A stretch of DNA of 64,000 bases from Euglena gracilis (GCA_039621445.1 CP154954.1:38115703-38179702), one strand, 5' to 3'; shown: positions 2,028 through 56,425, numbered from the stretch's first letter. The notes: a model not told the origin generated them from the letters alone. Translations and numbers: made by a program.

Positions 2028-34905
<32,878 letters not shown>

Positions 34906-42557: not shown

Positions 42558-42566
42558 TTATATATA

Positions 42567-42602
<36 letters not shown>

Positions 42603-42875
42603 TGTATGTATGTATGTATGTATGTATGTATGTATGTATGTATGTATGTATGTATGTATGTATGTATGTATGTATGTATGTATGTATGTATGTATGTATG
42701 TATGTATGTATGTATGTATGTATGTATGTATGTATGTATGTATGTATGTCTGTATGTATGTCTGTATGTCTGTATGTATGTCTGTATGTATGTATGTATG
42801 TATGTATGTATGTATGTATGTATGTATGTATGTATATATATATATATATACGTGTGTGTGTGTGTGTGCGTGTGT
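42558..42875. repeat. (TA)n-(TATG)n-(TA)n-(TG)n microsatellite
   Basis: Direct reading. Confidence 0.95.
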
Positions 42876-42999: not shown

Positions 43000-45900
43000 C
43001 TTTGGGACTCCACCACAGAACCGCCCTCCCACCACCCCACGCCGCATGTGCACCAAAGCAGTCTTCCCACCGGCAAAGGGGTGGGAGAAGGAGGCAGGGA
43101 GCAGGGCCAAAGGGGGGTCAGGGGGAGAGGAAGGGGTGGGCGTCGCCCTCGTGGGGCACGCCCCGCTTGTGCCCGGCGGCAGGGCTGGGGACAGGGCATG
43201 AAGTGAGAGGGGGGGAGAGGAGGGGGGGGACCCGGACCCTTCCATGGGGGGGTCGGACAGCGCCAGGCCTTAAACCAGACAGAAGCCGAAATGCATCTAA
43301 GGGGGGTCAGACCCCCCCTCTCCCCTGTGCAAAACCAACGATCACTTAATATCCTGGCTAGGGAGGGGGCTCGGCCGTGGTGCGCCGTATGCCCGGCCGG
43401 GGGTGAGCGGCGGGCGGGGTGGCTCGCGCACCGACAGGGCGAGCTCCATGCCGCTCAACAGGAGGGACAGCTGCTCTCCCCTCTGCGGGGAGGTGGGGGG
43501 GGGGGAGGGAGGTCGGGTCGACTGACTCAGGGACGGGTGTGAAGATTGCGGGGCTTCCGTGCCATCAGCACACAAATGGGTCGGCGGGAGGAGGGTCCGT
43601 GGCCTGGCATCAGACCCATCCGTTGAAAAACTGCACAAGCTTAATTCAAGAAAGTAACAAGGTTGAGAAGAATGACCATTTCATTTCATTGCATCAGCTG
43701 GGTGATCAAAAAAAACATCAACCCCCCCCGGGAAGCTGTCCTCTAGTCACCTGTCTCCATGGGGACCTGTCACCAGCCTCGATACTCGCTGACTTGTATG
43801 GTGACAGTTTCAGTTTCCCGGCAGGGGATAGCTCGGGAAGTTTTGCCTTTTTTTCAGCAAAAAAATGCGAAGAGTGTCAAAGAGACAGGTCAGCAGGTAC
43901 TAAGGTAGGAGACAGGTCCCTGTGAAGACAGCAGGTACAGAGGGTAGAGGACAGTTTCCCGGGGGTGGTGGGAGCCATGCCCGAGAACCTGCCAGGGTGC
44001 TGCCCGGAAGCAGGGATGGGATACCCGCTGTCTGGTGGCACTGTCCTTGCTGCTGGTACTGCGGGAGCTGAGCGGGGGCTGGCTGAACGGCCGCTGCGGA
44101 GAGGCGAACCGGACCGGCTGCCAAGCAGCACTCCTCAAAGGTCAGCTCAATGCGCCATGACAACTCGCAAAGCCGGCCGGCTGGAAAAAAGGTGCTGGCT
44201 GGACCCCCCCAAGGGGGTGGGGGTCCAGGGAGGTGGTTTGAACCCGGCTGGGACCCAAAAACGGGCAAAACAGCCCAAATCCAGCTGGGATGCATTTTTT
44301 CAGCTGAATTTTTGGGTGAAAACCCCCGAAAATGCCAAAAAATGACCATTTGTTTGGCCATTTTTGAACCACTTTTTTTTGCACCAAAAACTGTTTTGGT
44401 CGAGCCCAGCTTTGCCCAGCTGCGAAAAAATTTATAACTTTTCTTACCGCTTGACCCTGGGGTGGGGTCTGCAGCCTGGCTGGGAGGTGCTGGCTGGACC
44501 CCCCCCCCCCCGGGAGAAGGGTGGCAGCAGCAAGATTATACTTGCCCCCCCCAGGCTGGGGCGCCAAATAAAATCTCTGGGGGAGTCCAAAATTTCTTTT
44601 GCAGATTTATTGATGGAGTAGGGTTGGGGTTAGGAGTTCGGCCTGACTTTAAGCCTAACACCTAACCACCTAACACAATCTATAAGTTGGACCAAAAGTT
44701 GGGCCTAACTCCTAACCCTAACCCTATTTCATCAATAAAACAAAAAAAATTGACCCCCCTGGAGATTTTACTTATTTCAAGGAAAAGGCACAAAAACAAT
44801 TGGACACAAAAAAAACAAAAAGAAAAGTATTTGAATCCCCCACACTAGAAATATCAGAACTTATGACATTAAAGGAAATGCATGTTCACACAAAAAAAAT
44901 AGTATAGTGACTACATAAAGCGGAGACCAGGTGCTCCATCCGACATTATCAATAATGCTTCAATTTATACTGAAGCATTATTAAACATCCTGGGGAGGGA
45001 TTTAATTGTTCTGTTATCACTTGAAGTCCGAGTATATAATTTTGTGACACATGGCTCCATTTGTCCTTGCATGCAAAAATACACATAAAATGCTGTATTG
45101 TGCAGTGCTTTTCGTCATTTGAGATAAAAAAAAGGGGGCCAATTTTCAATCAATCAACATGGTTTCACCTTCAGATCCCAAATAGTGTACCCGGGGGTAA
45201 ATTATTTGGAGGGGTTGCTATTTCGCTATACCCTCACCCACGCGTGCCCCTTCCACAAATCAGAGTGGCTAGTGGATGGACTCGTCGGTTGCTGCCAATG
45301 GGCCATCACAGCAAGTCGCCCCCTTGGACCAAACCAGTGATACCGGGCCACCGGGGAAGGGGAGGCTGCACACGTGCAAGGCGCGGCCGCTGGAGTCGGA
45401 GGCTCCACTGCGGGCGCTCAGCAGAGGCTCAATATGAATGGGGGGCACCGGGGGCCCCGCATCGCCGGCAGGGTTGCTTGCCCTCGGCTGGATGGACAGC
45501 CGGTGGGAAGGGGGACGGCCGCCAGGACGTCAGGGAAAGGAAAGCAGGGAAAGAACCGGGGGAGAAAGGGGAAGCACCGTGGACATTTTTTTTTAAAAAA
45601 AGACCAGGTGAAGAGTTGGTGTAGTCTCCCACCCACCCACCCAAACAGGTGGGTGGGGGCTCATTTCGACCTTTGGGGCCATTTTGGAGTCCAGAAGGCA
45701 CGAAGCAACCTCCTGAAGGGGAGGTCCGATACTGGGTCCGATACTGTGCACACTCAATATGTGTGAAAAATGTTTGCAAGAAGCAGGTTTGCAAAAATGC
45801 TGGACTTCATCAGTATTTGTTTCAAATTCCTGGAGTTCCGGAATTCCAGACTGGGCTGGCCCAGTCTGAAACGTTTGACATAATCAGCATTGAAAACAAA

Positions 45901-48900
45901 AACAAGCTCCTCAGGAATTACATGCACACATCACATGCGCACATTTGTTGACGACAGCATGGACTGACTGAATCACCCGAACACCGCTTCGCCCCCCCCC
46001 AAAATATGAACACAACCAACCATCGCGACGGATCAATGCCTGTACAACCGGGCCGCCAGCCCTGCTCGTGCTCCTCGTGGTCGGTCTCCCCATCCCGGCG
46101 CGCCGCGGGGCCAGGCTTCTTTTTAAGACCCCCGGGGGGGGAGGGGGGGTTCCCCCCCACCCACCCAGGGTGGCGCAGGACCCCCGGGGGGGGGGGGACC
46201 CCCCCAAAATCGGGCCCGTTAAAGGCAATTTTCAAAAAATTTTCGGCGCTTCGCACCGAAAAGGTATACCCAGCGCCTCCGGTGCGGGACCCCCCCCCCC
46301 GGGGGGGGTCCGGCCCGGACCCACCCGCCCACCCCCTCCCCTGGGGGGGGGGGGGTCAGGTGACTTAAAAAGAAGCCTGCGCGGGGCCCAGCATGACCCG
46401 CGGGGTGCGGACATGCACGATTGGCGGCACACCGGCGAGACCACGGGGCGGCAAATGCCCCCCAAATGGTTGGGGCGTATTTCTGTCGGCAGAAAGTGGT
46501 GGAAAATTCTCTGCTGGATCAAGCTTGGCCTAACCCCCCCCAAAATAAGACTCGGGTCTTATTTTTGGGTCCGTTGCTGGAAACCTCCAGGGGGGGGGGT
46601 CTTATTTTTTGGGCGTTCTTAATTTCTTAAACTTTTTCTTGACCGACCCGGGCCCAAAAAAAAACCATCATTTTTCAGCTTCCCAGAAGCATTAAAATTT
46701 TTCGTTTGGCGCTTCGCACCATGGGTGAATTTGGTGTAAGTTGACATTTAGCATGTTTTTTTGCACTTCAAAAACGTGAAAATTTTTGAAGTTTCATCAT
46801 TTTTGTGTGTGAAATTGGGGTTTTTTGTTAATTTCTCATCTTCGGCGCTTCGAGCCGTCAGGGGGGTCTGATTTTTGGGGGGGGTCTTATTTTTGGGGTT
46901 TAGAAGAGAAAAAACCGGGGAGGGTTGTGCTAGCCTGGCCAGGGCTGCAGCGGGGGGAAAGGCGCGTTGATCGCCACTCCCTGGCTGGCTGGCAATCAAA
47001 AATAGGCATACACTTCCAGGTTCACAACAGGTTCACAAACGGAGGAAAACAACAACCCGGGAATTGCGTTGGGTGAAAAAATAATGGAAGAATAGGGACA
47101 ATAGAAAAAAGGCAACGTCCAGGCACAACAGCCCAAATGGCTGACACAAACTTTCACCCCAGGGAACAGCACTTGGGTCAACGTCACCCCACGCACTCCG
47201 CTGGGGGGGGGGGGACGGCTGTAGTGCGCAAAGAGCCCCCGGCGGCGTGGGCGAGTGGTCCAGGTCCATTGTTGTGCTGCGGCGGCTCAGCGGACGGGCG
47301 GGGGACACGTCGTGGGCCCACGACCCCGGGGAGTGCCCCTCCCTCGCCGTACCGGAGTCTGCAGGGCGAGAGAGAAGAAAGGAACCCGCTTGGCACTGCT
47401 GCAGGTTGGCCCAAATACGTCGTTTCTGCCGCCGGGCCCTGAGGTTCTGTGGCATGGTAATGTGCCGGGGACGCACGGTATTGCGCGGGATGGGGGACCT
47501 GCGCCGCCCGGCACACCACCGCCGCCGCCGCCCGGCACGCCGTCCGGCTTCAGGACGACGGCGGCCACCACCGTCCGGCACCGCCGCAGCCCTGCAGTGC
47601 CAGGCAATGTGGGCGGTCCGCCCAGCAGCCACCACACAGGGGTCTCGGAGGTTTGGGGGTGCCCAGACTGGATGGCAAAGCGGGCCAACGGAGTGGATGG
47701 GGGCCAGCAAGGTCATGCGCCACCCCCCCCCAACCCCGGCCCCCCCCCCAAAACGGGGCCACGGCAGGCAGCAGTGTGGGCGACCACTGCTGCCAACCCC
47801 TCCCGCGGGATGGCACACACCCGGCTGGTGCTGGGCCACGGTGGGCACCAGCTTGCACGTGACGTACTTGTGCCGCCGCTGCGGGGCCAGGCGCCGGCCC
47901 GCCTTGTCCCCCCCCCCCCCGAGGGTGTGTTCCATTCGCCCGGACGGCCAAGCGCGAACCGCCGGGGACGCCGTGGCACTCCCGCAAGCAGCGCCACCCA
48001 AACCTTAACGCTGGCGGAGCTGGGGGAAAATGGAAAAACAAGCACCGGAGTGCATGAAAACCGCACGGATCGTCGGATGGATTTGAAAAGGTGCAGACGA
48101 CCTCCACAATGAACAGTCGAGACCACCGCGCTGGAAAGCTCCCGCAGTGGGCAGGCAAAGAATGGGGGGAGGCTGTGCGGGGGGGGCCCATCGCTGAAGC
48201 GGGGCACTGGCCTGTGCAGGACCAGCCGACACGGGCGGCCGGGCTGCAGCTTCTGGAACGCCGCCTTGAACAGGCGCAGGGACGGCGTGCGGCGGGAGTT
48301 GACCTGGACGATGAAGTCGAACACCTGCGCCGGGGCGGAAGTGAAACGCGTCAGCCCAACCGTGCTGGGAGAATGTTTCATGTGAAACCGTTGGGCAGCA
48401 GCTGAGGCCGGGAGGGGAGCAGACCCCCTCCATCCGGCCAAGGAGCGGAGAGTGGGGGGGGGGGGGCACGGCACTCCTTGCCACCTTGACTCTGTAAACC
48501 CTCCAAATATCGAACCAGTCATCCCCCCGAGACCTGTCCCTGCTTCCTGTCTGCCTTTAGCGACCACCGGACAACAAGACAGAAGGCGCGACGGCCGGCG
48601 GTGCCACAGCCCCGGGGCTGAAGGGGGGGAGGACCTGGATCCCACTCCTGGCAGCCGGGCTGTGCTCCTTGACTCGGATGACCTGGGGAGGGCATGGGCG
48701 GAAGACGTACAGGGCACAGGGCGACGGCACTGACCGGCAGGGGAAACAGATGCTCAATGTGTGTGTGGGGTGGGTGGGTGGGTGGGTGGGTGGGTGGGTG
48801 GGTGGGTGGGGTGGGTGGGGTGGGTGGGGTGGGGTGGGTGGGTGGGTGGGGTGGGGTGGGTGGGTGGGTGGGGTGGGTGGGTGGGTGGGGTGGGTGGGTG

Positions 48901-48993
48901 GGTGGGGTGGGTGGGTGGGGTGGGTGGGGTGGGTGGGTGGGTGGGTGGGTGGGGGTGAGTGCGTGCGTGAGTGCGTGTGAGTGAGTGCGTGTT

Positions 48994-49029
<36 letters not shown>

Positions 49030-49132
49030 GTTGTGGTGTGTGTGTGGTGTGGTGGTGGTGTGGTGGTGTGGGTGGGGGTGTGTGTGGGGGGGTGGGTGGG
49101 TGTGTGGATGTGTGGGTGTGTGTGTGGGTGTG

Positions 49133-49165
<33 letters not shown>

Positions 49166-49185
49166 GTGTGTTGTGTGTGTGTGTG

Positions 49186-49266
<81 letters not shown>

Positions 49267-49343
49267 TGTGTTTGTGTGTTTGTGTGTGTGTGTGTGTGGT
49301 GTGTGTGTGTGTGTGGGTGGGTGTGTGTGTGTGGTGGGGGTGT

Positions 49344-49427
<84 letters not shown>

Positions 49428-49430
49428 TGT

Positions 49431-49469
<39 letters not shown>

Positions 49470-52400
49470 GGTGTGTGGGGGGGGTGTGGGTGTGTGTGGG
49501 TGTGTGTGGGTGTGTGGGTGTGTGTGGGGGGGGGTGTGGGTGTGGTGTGGGTGTGTGGGGGGGGGGTGTGTGTGGGTGTGGGTGGGTGGGTGGGTGTGTG
49601 TGTGTGTGCGTGTGTGTGTGTGTGTGTGTGCGTGTGCGTGCGTGTGTGTGGGTTTGTGTGTGCACGTGTCTTCTGCAAAATCCTGCTTCTCAGGCAAAAA
49701 ACTTAAGATTTTGGGCTGCTGGCAAACTTGCCTGCGCGGAAAACGGTCGACTAGAGGTTCAATTCTGTTGGGTGGAGGGGGGCAGATACATCAACGAAGG
49801 CTGGCTCTCCAAATCACCTACCACAACGGAACCTTCAGTGCTCCGTAGCCATGCCGGACCCGGGTCGCCCGGAGCCAGAGGCTGTCCGTCATCTCGAGGC
49901 CGATGTACGCGTGCCTCTGCCGCTCGTCCCCGGAGTCCTCCAGGCCCCCAAGGCCCGCCGCGTCCGACACGTCCTCGAACAGCAGCCTGCAGTGGGGATA
50001 CGACTCCGGGAAAACAAAAGGTTTTTGCTGTGGCCAGTGTCGCAGCGCAGTGGTGACACCTTTCGGACACAGGGCTCAGGGTTCGATATTAAGGCAGGCG
50101 GGGAAGGATGGGTTGGACCCCTCCCCCCCCCCCCGGTCCACGCGGTGCGGGTGACCGATTTTCAGCCCGACGTGCAGTTCTGGGCCGAAATTTCTTGCCC
50201 CGCAAAATCGGCCAAAAATGCCCATTTTGGGCATTTTCTGGGCAAAAAAATTGCCAAAATGCCCCAATTTTTTCAGGGTAAAGTGTCAGAAAGAAAGATT
50301 TGGACTTTGGGGGGTCCCAGGTAAACCCCCCCAAATAACACCCCTCCAAGGTACTATTTTTTCGCCCGTCCCGACCTGAGGGGGGGGGGTACTATTTGGG
50401 GGGTCGCTGAGCTCTTATCCCTTTATGGGTAAGATCGAAGCTTACCACTGGGGGAAAACCCCCCCGAACCCCCCCCCTCCCCCCCCCCTCGGGGCCACCT
50501 CGGGAACCGGCGGATTATCACCATGATCCCGGCCCCGTTCCCGAAATTTTTTTTTTCAGTCGCGAGCGACTGGATTCCTAGTTTCCGAATCACCTGGGTT
50601 TGACCCCCAACTCCCCGCCAGGCCCGAGTTATTCACGCGCGAAGGGGTCCAAACTGGGTAGGATTCGCCAACCCCCCCTGGATAAGCCCCCCCCCTTTGG
50701 ACGGCCAAAAAATGTCAATTTTCAAAATATCTCCAAAATGAAGCAAAATCAAAGGAAATGTCCGGAGACCTAATTTGAAGCCCTTGGAACGCCCCATATG
50801 CCGGTATTTTGATTTCCCCGCAACTCCCCGCCTGGCCCGAGATACGGCCATTTTTGGCCCGGATGGCCGTTTTGTACCCGCCCCCCCCCCTTGTCCACCG
50901 ACCGGGTTCCTGCGACCCCCGACCAGGGGGGGTGGTCGTACACCCCCCACAACCTGCAACCCCCGACCGGGGGGTGGTCGTACCACTAGGGGCCAAAACA
51001 AAACCAAAAGCCAAAAAAGGTGCAATTTCATAACGGTAATATTTCTCCCCATTAGGTGAGGGACCAATGCCATCACTACACTCAAACAAAACAGGACTCC
51101 CCGGAGGGAACATGACGAACACTCAAGGGACAGGAAACACGGGAAAAAAGCTGGTCAATAAGCACATGAGAGGAAAAATTTTGGTCGTCACCTGCAACCC
51201 CCGACCAGGGAGGGTGGTCGTACACCCCCCTCCACCTGCAACCCCCGACCGGGGGGTGGTCGGTATATAGGGGTGGTCGGTGGACAAGGGGGGGGGCGGG
51301 TACACTTTTCCCACTGTCCGACTTAGCCGTTTTCGGGGGGTGGGGGGTCAAAAAACGAATGTTTTCAAAATTTCTCGAAAATGTTGCAAAATCAAAGGAA
51401 ATGTCCGGAGACCTAAATTGAAGCCCTTGGAACGCTCTATCTACTGGGACTTTGGTTTCCCCACAACTCCCCGCCCAGCCCGAGATACGGGCGTTTTTTG
51501 GCCAATTTGGGCCGTTTCAGGCCATTTTGTACACTTTTCCCTCTGTTCGACTAGGCCGTTTTCGGCCCAAAAAGTCGAAAAAAATCGAAAAAAATTTTTT
51601 GCCCCGAAACGATGTTTTTTGGCCTCCCGGACCCGGAAAAACTGTTTTTGAGCCGAAAACGAGCGTTTTTCGACCCGCCAGCGCCCCGTTTTGGGCCGCC
51701 GACCCATTGACTTTGGGTCAAAACCGGGTCGAAAAAGTCGAAAAAAATCGAAAAAATTTTTTTTGCCCGAAACGATGTTTTTTGGCCTCCCGGACCCGGA
51801 AAAACTGTTTTTGAGCCGAAAACGAGCGTTTTTCGACCCGCCAGCGCCCCGTTTTGGGCCGCCGACCCATTGACTTTGGGTCAAAACCGGGTCGAAAAAG
51901 TCGAAAAAAATCGAAAAAATTTTTTTTGCCCGAAACGATGTTTTTTGGCCTCCCGGACCCGGAAAAACTGTTTTCGAGCCGAAAACGAGCGTTTTTCGAC
52001 CCGCCAGCGCCCCGTTTTGGGCCGCCGACCCATTGACTTTGGGTCAAAACCGGGTCGAAAAAGTCGAAAAAAATGCAAAAAAAAGTTTTTTTTTTTTTTG
52101 GCCTCCCGGACCCGGAAAAACTGTTTTTGAGCCGAAAACGAGCGTTTTTCGACCCGCCAGCGCCCCGTTTTGGACCGCCGACCCATTGACTTTGGGTCAA
52201 AAACGGGTCAAAAAAAGTCGAAAAAATTCGAAAAACATTTTTTTGCCCAAAACGATGTTTTTGGGCCTCCCGGACCCAGAAAAACTGTTTTGAGCCGAAA
52301 ACGAGCGTTTTTCGACCCGCCAGCGCCCCGTTTTGGACCGCCGACCCATTGACTTTGGGTCAAAACCGGGTCAAAAAAGTCGAAAAAAATGCAAAAAAAA

Positions 52401-55400
52401 ATTTTTGCCCGAAACGATGTTTTTTGGCCGCCCGGACCCAGAAAAACTGCTTTGATCCGAAAACGAGCGTTTTTCGGGCCGCCGGGCCGCCGGGCTGCCG
52501 GCCGGGCCGCCGGCCGGACCGCCGGGCCGCCGGGCCGCCGGCCGGGCCGCCTGGCCGCCGCCGGGCCGCCGGGCCGCCGGCCGGACCGCCGGGCCGCCGG
52601 CCGGACCGCCGGGCCGCCGGCCGGCCGCCGGGCCGCCGGGCCGCCGGCCGGGCCGCCGGGCCGCCGGCCAGGCCGCCGGGCCGCCGGGCCGCCGGCCGGA
52701 CCGCCGAGCCGCCGGCCGGGCTGCCGGGCCGCCGGGCCGCCGGCCGGGCCGCCGGGCTGCCGGGCCGTCGGGCCGCCGGGCCGGGGTCAATGAAGGCGTG
52801 CGGGCGCCCTTATAAAGAGCTCAGCACTATTCAAAACCTGGTATTATTCCCCCAAATTTTCGAAAATTTTCGAAGTCCTGTAGGAGCCAAAATAGCGCCA
52901 AAGCTCCCCTTTGGGGTCATTTTTCGTACTTTCTTCTGAAATTTACCATTTTTTTAGAGGTCAGATGATCCAGAAAAATCGATTTTTTTTTCTTAATTTG
53001 TTGTCAGAAATTGTGCTTCTTTTTAACCTACATTTCAGGTCAAATCCTTATTTATTATTTTGATTATTATTTTGATTTATTGGTGATTATTTCAGTCGCC
53101 GAAGTCGGACCCCAAGGGGGGTATTATTTGGGGGGGGTATTATTTGAGGGGGGGTATTACTTGGAGGGAGGGTTTACCCCCCAGGGCCGGTCCTGAACCC
53201 CCGGTCCAAGACGGGAGACAACCCCCCCCCCCCCAACCTGTACACCCTCCTATCGAACCTTGGGCGGGCTGTTGACGACGCCCCACGGGAAAGGTGACAG
53301 AACTTCCTTGGGTGTCACTGGCTCTCCACTGGTGTGAGGGCAGGAGAGGTGGGAGTTGTATTGGTGGGGGGGGAATTAGAGACACAAGCCCCCGGAAAAG
53401 CCAAGAGACGTTCAGATACCAAAATGATGTGCAATCCCTAAAAATCTGCCTGAAGCGTGAAGCGCACGCAATGGGATTTCTTTTCTTGTGTAAATGATGA
53501 TTTTCCGTGGGCCTGGATCAGCCAAGTGATTGGTCCAGCTCACATGCTGGAAAATTAGGGCTGGCTGGAAATAGCTATTGGCTGACTCACCCATAAGAGT
53601 CTCCTGGCTAGAACTGGTCTAAATCCGACCTCTGGTGAACCATGCCTTTGGGCACAGCATTGCCCAGCATCGCCCAGCATCCAGGGTCGAAACCCAGAAA
53701 AAATCAAAAAGTGTAAAAGTGCAAAAGTGCAAAAAAAAATTTCCAAAATACAAAATACAAAATACAAATTTTTTACAATTTTTTTGGAAATGCAAAAAAA
53801 AGTGCAATTTTTTTTACAAAATACAAAACTACAAAAATACAAAATTTTTTATTTTACAATTTTTTTGGAAATGCAAAAAAATGCTCAAAAACAACTGACA
53901 AACTGACATAAAACAAAAAGGCCTATTTTTGAACTGCAAAATTGGCCTGCCTTCTGACCATTTTTGCCATTTTGGCTCATTTAACACCTACTGCAAAAAC
54001 CAAAAATGCAGGAAAGGAAAGCACCCCATAAAGAGAAGGGGGGGAGGGCATTTAATGACTGGGGGAGGGGTGATCTGGACCCCCCTCCCCCGAGGGGAAA
54101 AACTTGGCGCGAAGCGCCAGATTTTTGAACGTGCCCAGAAGTGCCAAAAATTGTGTTTACAGGTGATTTTTTTTCACAAATTGACAACAGACGATAAAAA
54201 CACAAGTTTTCCAGCTCAAAGCGCTGGTGATGAGTTCTCTTGGTTCCAGGGGGTCCTGGACCCCCCACTGCCCTGGGGGGTCAGACCCGCCTAGTAAAAA
54301 ACCAACGCTCACTAAATACCCCTGGGGAGGGAGTCCAGGGCTGGGGAAAAGTCCCGGGGGGGATGGGGTGCTCTTCCGCTTAAAAATGAGGCAGTGTATC
54401 TGAACAATCCAAAAAATCATTCAAAACTTTCTTCTTTTCTGTTTCCGAAATTCAAATTTTCAGCACTCTGAGGAATTGTTTTCATACGGCAATTTTGGGG
54501 AGGGGTCCAACTTTCAACGTGGAGTCTTCTTTGGGAAGGGGCAGCCACCCACGCGGTCAGCCTTGGAGTGCACTTTTGTTACGACCTGCTCCTGAGCGCG
54601 AGGCGGAAAATGACCCCATTCCGGGGATGACCCACCTTGCATTGAAAGCCCAGCCAGAGATAGGGCTGGAGATAGAAGGGGAATAATGCAAAGGCAAATT
54701 GGGCTGGACAAAACTGGGCAGGCAAGTCCCGCCCCACTAAATCCGCCCCCCCCCCTAAATAACCTGGCGGGGCCCTTGCTCCTGGCAGTGGCCAAATAAC
54801 TTGGCAGGGGGCCAGGCAAAAAAAAGATTGCTCAAGTAACTTGGCACCGCCACTTTAAGGGAAAAGCAGCTTGTGCCGCTAAAAAAAAAGGGCGCAAACG
54901 ACCTGGCAGGGGGAATGCCAAACAGATGGTTCCAATAACTTGGCACCCGCCGGGTTACTTGGGGAGGGGGGCGTGTTTCCGGGGCCGCTCTCCCTCCTCC
55001 GCCAAGGGCACACCGCTCATCCTCCGGGTCCACGTCGGTCGCCCCCTCCCGGTCCCCGCCCGGCGCTGCCCAGCGGCCGTGGCCGGGGGCCCCTTCCGCC
55101 AGCTTCGGGTCCTGGAACACCCGGCAACCGCAGGCCCGCACACGGACTTCCCGGTGCCCTCCGGCACGGGACACGGGCTGAGCACGGGGTCTGCCCCCGC
55201 CCAGCCTGGTGGGGGACCCCTCCAAAAAATCGGGCCGTCTGAAAGTGCTTTTCGGTCCAGCCGGGCTTTGCTGGGCAGTGGTAACTTTTTTTCCACTTGG
55301 GGGTTCTCAGCCCCCGGCTGGGAGGAAAAAAAAGTGGGGCTGGCTGGATCCCCCCCACATGTGTGGGTCTGGCATTTAAAATTCCCTCCGTCCGAGGTAA

Positions 55401-56425
55401 ACGAAGCCTGGGCTGGTTCCTGGAGAACGGGGGGGGGGGGTCACTCGCTTCACCAGCAATGAATCAAAATGATGTGCGGCTTCCCCTCACCGGGGTGTGT
55501 GCCGCGGCCTGGGCATCGCCGGCGGTACTTCTTCGGGCGCTGCCACACGTCATCACCGGCAGACACGGCCGCCGTCCCAGTGCCAGGCCCGACCGGACCG
55601 GACCTGACGGAGCGCCGACACCCGGCACGAGAGACCGTATTCGCAGGGCGGCTGGCAGGCTGGCTGGAGGCAGCCGGCGAGAGGGGAGGCCTGTCTGTGG
55701 TGTGTGCCGTGCCGCACCGCCCGCGATGGCTTTCGCCGCACGTTTCGAACCCCAGCGGCCATTGCTGGAGCCGGCGGTGCATTTTGTATCATGGGAAGGG
55801 CGACACGAATTGAAAAAACCTTTGGCTTGGTGGTTGTCGGGACATCACGAGGCGGGACATACAGGTTAAGGGTGGCCAGAGAGTTTCTGTCGGTCCAAAA
55901 ATAAGGGGGGGAACCATGAGGCAATGGACAGGAAAGGCACAAACCCAATCGTCAAAATGCACGGCCTGCGGAGTCCCCGGTGCCTCCGTCCGTTGCGTCG
56001 ATCGGGTGGATGGAGTGGACGGGTGTACCCCGCGGAGGGGGGTGGTGAGTCGACCCTTGATGGGCGTGGAGATGGCCGACCCCTGCAGGAAGGCCACCGA
56101 AATGCAACCACATCTGTCACGCAGACGAGATATTGACGACCCAGCTCAGGGAGGAAACTAGGAGTGTGGCATGCCCCCCCCCTGCAGAACACATGGGCAA
56201 CCCAAAAACGTTCTATCAATGAGCTTCTGAATGCACTCTTAAAAGCTTTGGTGGTTCCATTCCAGGCTTTCTCCTTCAGGGGTGGTAACGGTTGGGGAGG
56301 GACGGAGAAGAAGCATCACCATCAAATCAACAAGGCCAACAGTGAAAAGGCAAAGCAGAGCAAGAGAGTACCTGCATGCCATATGCTGCCGGCACGTCGC
56401 TGACACCTGAGGGGCAGGGTTTACC

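Follow-up and report, generated by a model that had tools for sequence, protein, structure and literature searches.

Nonconventional introns of euglenids have non-GT-AG borders, carry CAG at positions +4 to +6 and CTG at -8 to -6 with spacers of 3 and 5 nt, pair at their ends, are followed by an exon that opens with a purine, and are absent from mRNA (Milanowski et al., 2014; Milanowski et al., 2016; PMC12501133). The origin of these introns has been a standing question since the 1990s. We analysed a 64,000-nt stretch of the Euglena gracilis genome (GCA_039621445.1 CP154954.1:38115703-38179702; hereafter the window) in which a MITE (miniature inverted-repeat transposable element) lies within exon 10 of a gene encoding a PDZ-domain protein. 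The MITE is real and intact, sits in a coding exon, shares the features just listed, and is best read as a transposon and a nonconventional intron at once.

A MITE origin was proposed for these introns in 2014 from their inverted repeats, at a time when, according to the accessible text, no euglenid transposon had been identified (PMC3935182). Papers from 2018, 2024 (BMC Genomics) and 2025 (diplonemid) repeat the MITE hypothesis and nothing more. A 2024 review labels the CAG and CTG at +4 to +6 and -8 to -6 as inverted repeats and describes repeats at the junctions that resemble a target-site duplication (TSD) (PMC11282704). An article published in PNAS in 2025 calls the origin of the introns 'unclear' and sets aside as 'slidable' those with direct repeats at their flanks, 84.4% of introns; its available text does not contain the word 'duplication' (PMC12501133). 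Across the accessible portions of the euglenid intron papers, the origin is either 'unclear' or hypothetical and the transposon family is unnamed. Among full-text articles, with subscription papers and supplements beyond reach, we found no identified euglenid transposon family tied to these introns; within the same limits, we found neither the equation of the N3 and N5 spacers with an 8-bp TSD nor hAT named for these introns. The general idea of a MITE origin and the presence of 'TSD-like' repeats beside CAG/CTG are already in print, as the accessible text of two papers documents (PMC3935182, PMC11282704), and the locus described here makes a known hypothesis concrete; it is not a new category.

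Several described systems come close to this locus. In contrast to the euglenid introns of the papers cited above, the MITE represents in intact form what appears to be a high-copy family, its terminal inverted repeat (TIR) being perfect over 16 bp and its TSD over 8 bp. The strain-specific new intron 4 of gapC in E. agilis ACOI 323 is likewise nonconventional and flanked by eight-nucleotide direct repeats; it differs in that the repeats were read as a product of double-strand-break repair, and the accessible text reports neither a repeat family nor a long inverted repeat (PMC4770533). The introners of Micromonas, Aureococcus and others resemble the present element in that they are MITE-like, exonic and removed at the RNA level, with a duplication that aids exact removal, whereas they are excised by the spliceosome at GT/AG sites that are supplied or co-opted, and the duplication in Micromonas is 3 nt long (PMC11282704). 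At the present locus, unlike in introners, distance from the TIR ends (3 and 5 nt) determines where the cut falls. A further parallel is the maize hAT element Ds, an element with 8-bp duplications that is reportedly removed from transcripts of the gene that it interrupts, by ordinary splice sites and mostly imprecisely, whereas removal here restores the sequence exactly. The behaviour of Ds as an intron is cited in PMC3935182 (Giroux et al., 1994).

The explanation that we favour, and hold to be probable, is that the MITE inserted into exon 10 of the PDZ gene and acts there as a nonconventional intron. A non-autonomous DNA transposon would have landed in the coding exon and created an 8-bp TSD. 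Once transcribed into pre-mRNA, the 16-nt inverted repeats would pair with each other and draw the element ends together, and the nonconventional system would then place its cuts 3 nt ahead of the 5' CAG and 5 nt beyond the 3' CTG. Since 3 + 5 = 8, the length of one TSD copy, the excised piece would equal the element plus one copy, and its removal would restore the pre-insertion reading frame exactly. This account draws on observed properties of the locus: the structure of the element, its exonic position, the absence of 276 nt from transcripts, the fit to the splicing code and the 8-nt geometry of other elements and introns in the window. The locus offers an intact family member within a coding exon, a numerical reason for the 3-nt and 5-nt spacers, and a set of termini with which to hunt for a transposase. 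With these, the knock-in methods that exist for E. gracilis can be used to test intron gain, insertion polymorphism and the cutting rule.

An intact MITE interrupts exon 10 of a PDZ-domain gene

An original prediction, made from the sequence of the window alone, had proposed an intact 268-bp MITE with a 16-bp TIR starting CAG and an 8-bp TSD. Coordinates, exact repeats and chance tests confirm it. Inspection of the plus strand shows a TIR that is perfect at 16/16 positions and a TSD that is perfect at 8/8, with 236 bases between the two TIR arms (Table 1). The 16-mer TIR occurs twice in the window, and these occurrences are the two arms; with up to two mismatches allowed, 0.04 occurrences are expected by chance, and at least two were found in 0 of 100 shuffles. 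The window contains 110 perfect inverted repeats of at least 11 bp that are not of low complexity, and in only one of them, that of the MITE, does the direct repeat at the flanks exceed 3 nt (8 nt). A scan for open reading frames (ORFs) found only short ones inside the element, which has the properties by which MITEs are recognized: it is short, has TIRs and a TSD, and is without coding capacity. The element and one TSD copy together measure 276 bp, a length divisible by three.

We identified the host gene through a 42-residue exon translation (43357-43482, minus strand), which in a protein search matched a single protein at 100% identity. This protein (P0001, 409 amino acids) is transcript-derived, carries the source name eukprot:EG_transcript_7597 and has a PDZ domain at residues 124-193. 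We take the prefix EG to stand for Euglena gracilis, and the intron types of the gene fit a euglenid. P0001 falls into 15 coding segments on the minus strand (55762 to 43121) and matches the window in full save at residue 290 and along a Gly repeat of exon 8. The proposed placement of the MITE within a minus-strand exon is thus borne out by the protein match, which makes its flanks part of exon 10 of 15. Read into the MITE, the minus-strand frame gives ...PRVMLGPAQASF followed by a stop codon (...GPAQASF, then stop), so that the immediate stop expected on read-through is real. The peptide that had been proposed for the restored exon holds in part: its frame matches the known protein, but its last residues, 'EQG', lie in intron 11, the exon ending EEH before the junction with D.

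Known transcripts lack the element and one TSD copy

The transcript-derived protein reads straight over the insertion site (...TTMDLDHS IVHVRTPRVMLGPAARRDGETDREEHD AGPPVPPIHIE...). The window encodes IVHVRTPRVMLGPA as far as 46380 and ARRDGETDHEEH from 46103 onward; since P0001 joins the one directly to the other, it lacks the intervening 276 nt and keeps the frame that preceded the insertion.

A transcript contig provides a second line of evidence. Record 9 of RNA run X15, 813 nt long, has pieces that align to 47359-47253, 45461-45374, 43482-43356 and 43182-43064. Between the pieces that end at 47253 and start at 45461 lie exactly 81 unlisted letters. The span 46422..46066 comprises 357 nt, and 357 - 276 = 81, the size of the gap in the record between exons 9 and 11. 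A further 69 unlisted letters in the same record equal the length of exon 12, which indicates that short pieces were simply left off the list. Known transcripts are therefore without exactly the element and one TSD copy, which is the loss of 276 nt that had been foreseen: P0001 lacks precisely this sequence and the 81-nt count agrees, the allele of origin being a separate matter that we take up below.

The element carries the nonconventional splicing code

The published code for nonconventional splicing reads 5'-N3-CDG-/-CH'G-N5-6^R(exon)-3' (the caret marks the cut) and is accompanied by pairing beside the motifs (PMC12501133). Five fully artificial 50-bp introns that carried the code features alone were spliced in E. 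gracilis knock-ins (PMC12501133). The MITE and its TSD satisfy each item of this code, with 16 paired bases. The coding-strand junctions are ...GGCCCC^GCG-CAG-GCTTC...GAAGC-CTG-GCCCC^GCGGCG, and the CAG at +4 to +6, CTG at -8 to -6 and spacers of 3 and 5 nt named in the original prediction are the same as those in the accessible published descriptions (PMC11282704, PMC12501133).

The cut can slide across the TSD with the mRNA unchanged. Eleven cut positions are compatible with P0001, each removing 276 nt, and GT/GC-AG ends occur in 0 of the 11. The minimum-energy RNA fold of the intron is closed by the TIRs and has an energy of -202.5 kcal/mol, compared with -170.0 ± 6.5 for shuffled sequences (z = -4.99; 0 of 200 shuffles equal). 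The element accordingly shows four properties by which a euglenid nonconventional intron is known, namely borders other than GT/GC-AG, the code, paired ends and absence from mature mRNA (again setting aside the allele of origin). A further mark of such introns is release as circular RNA, later than the conventional introns; the nonconventional pathway is reported to release circular introns (PMC11282704), and among the 15 joints listed of 375, none is a circle junction of the released intron.

Older introns of the same gene share the 8-nt register

The PDZ gene contains six other nonconventional introns. For these we took the register from the CAG/CTG ends, or CAC/GTG in the case of intron 9, and compared the 8 nt on one side of each element with the 8 nt on the other. 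Summed over the six introns, 25 of 48 positions match in the 8-nt register. This register is the best among lengths of 2-12, with a matching share of 0.52 against 0.22-0.42, and the sum exceeds those of all 265 flank derangements (mean 16.0, maximum 23). The published code fits five of the six older introns, or six of seven with the MITE included, intron 9 being the exception. The clearest case is intron 14, whose flanks agree at seven of eight positions: it has an inverted repeat of 12/15, is high-copy in part, and its junction is seen directly both in the X15 contig (record 486/487) and in P0001. Against these results stand the flanks of introns 1 and 9, which agree at two of eight positions each, the divergent ends of intron 9, and the size of the sample, which comprises six introns of one gene. 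The comparison supports the conclusion that, in the PDZ gene, remnants of an 8-nt duplication persist in older introns at the register of the MITE.

The 8-nt TSD accounts for the 3+5 spacer rule of nonconventional splicing. A broader proposal follows the same line, and we regard its chances as evenly balanced: the spacer rule would be the RNA-level mirror of the 8-bp TSD of one CAGG...CCTG transposon superfamily, with a machinery that measures from the transposon ends; most nonconventional introns would be insertion fossils, the 'slidable' repeats would be decayed TSDs, and the MITE family would still be making introns. Of all E. agilis introns, 71.8% are nonconventional (PMC12501133). Were the proposal true, this roughly 72% would consist mostly of fossils of such insertions.

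A probable repeat family with CAGGC termini

We found several indications that the MITE is one of many copies. In DNA run X1, summed depth in the two bins over the MITE reaches 615,345 and 552,491, with 993,656 at 46234, while single-copy depth in the same run is 31-72 for contigs and about 50-130 for bins, a gap of roughly four orders of magnitude. Reads of RNA from further copies cease to match right after 46379, the end of the TIR (11 reads in X21 with agreement of 0.52; 10 reads in X24 with agreement of 0.64), and their continuations past this point are mixed (flank agreement 0.52-0.64).

We also scanned the window for CAG...CTG pairs whose ends form an inverted repeat matching at 10/12 or better. 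Among the 280 such pairs, three have 8-nt flanks that match at 7/8 or more: the MITE itself (8/8), an element at 2519-2826 (8/8) and an element at 26672-26861 (7/8). Thirty dinucleotide shuffles produced one case at 7/8 or better in total. The element at 2519-2826 has arms CAGGCTGTTGCTTAAA and CTCAAGCAGAAGCCTG, the right of which is identical to the MITE TIR at 13/16 positions, and contains the central hairpin core of the MITE (AAAAAATTTTyGGCGCTTCGC). Its perfect TSD agrees with the expectation in the original prediction that other copies should also carry 8-bp TSDs. The element at 26672-26861 has an inverted repeat of 15/16 (CAGGGCAGAACGGGAA).

As separate observations on their settings, in an analysis of ORFs and of GC content at third codon positions over the junctions of both elements, that at 2519 is open in each of the six frames, and the element at 26672-26861 sits between coiled-coil exons of a large minus-strand gene.

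Two points temper this evidence: the depth sums take in partial and low-complexity matches and are therefore not copy numbers, and when the flanks were offset by 12 nt as a control, two 8/8 matches arose by chance, so that the count of three is weak by itself. The figures for copies with the MITE termini comprise a high summed depth, reads of other copies that end at 46379 and one related copy in the window. The MITE is best read as belonging to a high-copy family with CAGGC... termini. The family may still be mobile, and it could be a recent generator of introns, the present MITE being the one copy shown to lie in an exon. Introners, by comparison, are recognized by near-identical copies that make introns in many genes of unrelated kind.

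An Rfam scan of the window gave no matches, and scans of metagenomes with the two-arm MITE pattern gave no hits. Four metagenome contigs (L001-L004) contain exact matches to the core motif (46234-46262) and were considered as relatives; they were rejected, being terminator-like hairpins in AT-richer DNA without the inverted repeats. The MITE core consists of a run of A, a GC stem looped by TTCG and a T/A-run, a shape that is convergent in the contigs, whose DNA is unrelated.

Assignment to a transposon superfamily

An 8-bp TSD together with CAG termini is the classic signature of hAT transposons. The consensus start of hAT TIRs is YARNG, and the target motif typical of hAT elements is nTnnnnAn. 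With regard to duplication length the comparison is favourable: flank matches are 8/8, 8/8 and 7/8 in the three elements, and an 8-nt register is best for the six older introns. Termini are CAGGC in the MITE, the element at 2519 and introns 1, 2 and 6; intron 11 and the element at 26672 have CAGGG, and intron 14 has CAGGA. The 8-bp TSD and the CAG ends are the only basis on which the label hAT is applied, and a hAT-like transposase may be supposed.

Three observations pull away from this label. The fifth base of the MITE TIR is C, where YARNG has G; the target motif fits one of the three TSDs, namely CTCTGGAG; and no transposase was found by Pfam, which matched none of nine ORFs of the window. 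The hAT reading of the original prediction is thereby upheld in its TSD length and CAG ends and weakened on these three counts. It is quite possible, though we lean away from it, that the transposon-intron belongs to another superfamily with TSDs of about 8 bp (P, Merlin, Mutator-like or undescribed). Besides the fifth base and the target motif, this alternative is favoured by literature reports, accessible in part, of Merlin elements in Discoba, whereas the combination of 8-bp TSD and CAG termini, and the two CAGGG termini (the element at 26672 and intron 11), argue for hAT.

The allele of origin

The sequences that lack the 276 nt differ slightly from the window. Codon 46079-46077 specifies His (CAC) in the window and Arg at residue 290 of P0001; the Gly repeat of exon 8 (GGC/GGT, 47502-47540) is 12 nt longer in the window, P0001 being four residues shorter; and position 43381 is T>C both in the X15 contig and in DNA run X1. 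As P0001 and the X15 contig depart from the window in these ways, an insertion-free allele could have made the transcripts. In addition, the 81-nt stretch of record 9 is not listed letter by letter, its content following from its length and from P0001, and no read or contig that joins 46383 to 46106 and carries a window-specific variant was seen among the listed RNA and DNA run data. All of this counts against attributing the known transcripts to the allele in the window. The RNA reads placed on the window number 257 in X21 and 199 in X24, nearly all of which overlap it only in part. The joint 46103/46380 is not among the 15 of 375 joints listed, a list that omits the certain joints of record 9 too and is hence neutral.

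These differences bear on the alternative that the insertion is recent and specific to a haplotype or strain, that its in-frame stop leaves the allele broken and unspliced, and that the intact mRNAs come from empty-site alleles. Contigs from X1 diverge from the window by about 1-2% in introns, which indicates that several haplotypes or strains exist, and an empty site is possible insofar as no DNA contig spans the insertion site among those listed. We nonetheless consider the alternative unlikely. The element and its TSD have every feature that sufficed for artificial introns to splice in E. gracilis, so that splicing is expected with or without an empty allele as well, and intron 14 of the same gene, built alike with an inverted repeat of 12/15 and flanks of 7/8, is spliced. 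Given that the published code was sufficient for artificial introns, splicing of the element-bearing allele itself is likely.

That the 8-nt direct repeats arose as a side effect of double-strand-break repair at intron gain, without cut-and-paste transposition, is very improbable: this is how the accessible text explains the eight-nucleotide direct repeats of the new gapC intron in E. agilis (Milanowski et al., 2016; PMC4770533), and the want of a Pfam transposase in the nine window ORFs would accord with it, but the inverted repeat that is perfect across 16 bp, the very high summed depth with a repeat boundary exactly at the TIR end, and the related window copy with its own, different, perfect 8-bp TSD are marks of a transposon family.

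Insertion of a MITE that acts as a nonconventional intron thus continues to be the explanation we prefer. The interpretation advanced in the original prediction gains exonic flanks, an exact 276-nt loss, the code and an 8-bp geometry elsewhere in the window, while its hAT assignment and the splicing of this specific allele do not stand as firmly.

Features of the window

Coordinates of the MITE, the PDZ gene and the related elements are collected in Table 1.

Table 1. Features of the MITE locus, its host gene and related elements, in window coordinates
Feature	Coordinates	Strand	Description
TSD, left copy	46104..46111		CGCGGGGC on plus strand, GCCCCGCG on coding strand; 8/8 identical to 46380-46387
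Left TIR	46112..46127	+	CAGGCTTCTTTTTAAG; exact, pairs with 46364-46379
MITE	46112..46379		268 bp, non-coding; G/C homopolymer palindromes and central hairpin core
MITE central hairpin core	46234-46254		AAAAAATTTTCGGCGCTTCGC
Right TIR	46364..46379	-	plus strand reads CTTAAAAAGAAGCCTG, exact reverse complement of CAGGCTTCTTTTTAAG
TSD, right copy	46380..46387		CGCGGGGC; 8/8 identical to left copy
Family termini			CAGGCTTCT...
Nonconventional intron (MITE)	46107..46382	-	276 nt; N3/N5 register; GCG-CAG...CTG-GCCCC^G
Exon 10, interrupted by MITE	46068..46422	-	encodes (S)IVHVRTPRVMLGPAARRDGETDHEEH(D)
PDZ-domain gene	43064..55762	-	matches EG_transcript_7597; 15 coding segments, 14 introns
Conventional GT-AG introns of PDZ gene			7: introns 3, 4, 5, 7, 8, 12, 13
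Nonconventional introns of PDZ gene			7: introns 1, 2, 6, 9, 10 (= MITE), 11, 14
Exon 12 of PDZ gene	44093-44025	-	69 nt
Intron 1			flank match 2/8
Intron 2			flank match 5/8
Intron 6			flank match 6/8
Intron 9			flank match 2/8; ends CAC/GTG, not CAG/CTG
Intron 11			flank match 3/8
Intron 14, older MITE-like	43186..43360	-	173 nt; 165-bp element CAGGATATTAAGTGA...TCACTTCATGCCCTG; flanks TCCCTAGC/TCCCCAGC (7/8)
Related family member, 308 bp at 2519-2826	2511..2834		perfect 8-bp TSD CTCTGGAG
Third CAGG...CCTG element, 190 bp at 26672-26861	26664..26869		flanks AGGAGGGG/GGGAGGGG (7/8)

The PDZ gene contains further repeats. Intron 9 harbours a separate high-copy repeat (46533-46898) with arms CCCCCAAAATAAGAC and GTCTTATTTTTGGGG and internal copies of the same motif; in X1 it reaches a depth of 300,000-420,000, with boundaries of the repeat at 46534, 46668 and 46825. 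A GT/GGGT-rich microsatellite of roughly 900 bp (48758-49662) lies inside conventional intron 4, and a tandem repeat with a 163-bp unit (51569-52000) inside the 5-kb intron 3. At the 3' end of the gene, the X15 transcript contig ends its match at 43064, 54 nt past the stop codon (43120-43118), and 208 nt continue elsewhere, which suggests that the 3' untranslated region holds another intron.

Elsewhere in the window, coiled-coil-like exons form a string on the minus strand at about 8000-30000 (for example, 15848-16033, 21259-21420 and 29567-29752), which suggests a very large gene. A protein search with the exon at 15848-16033 found no match among proteins of 110-2000 residues. A tandem array, (TATG)76, occupies 42561-42865.

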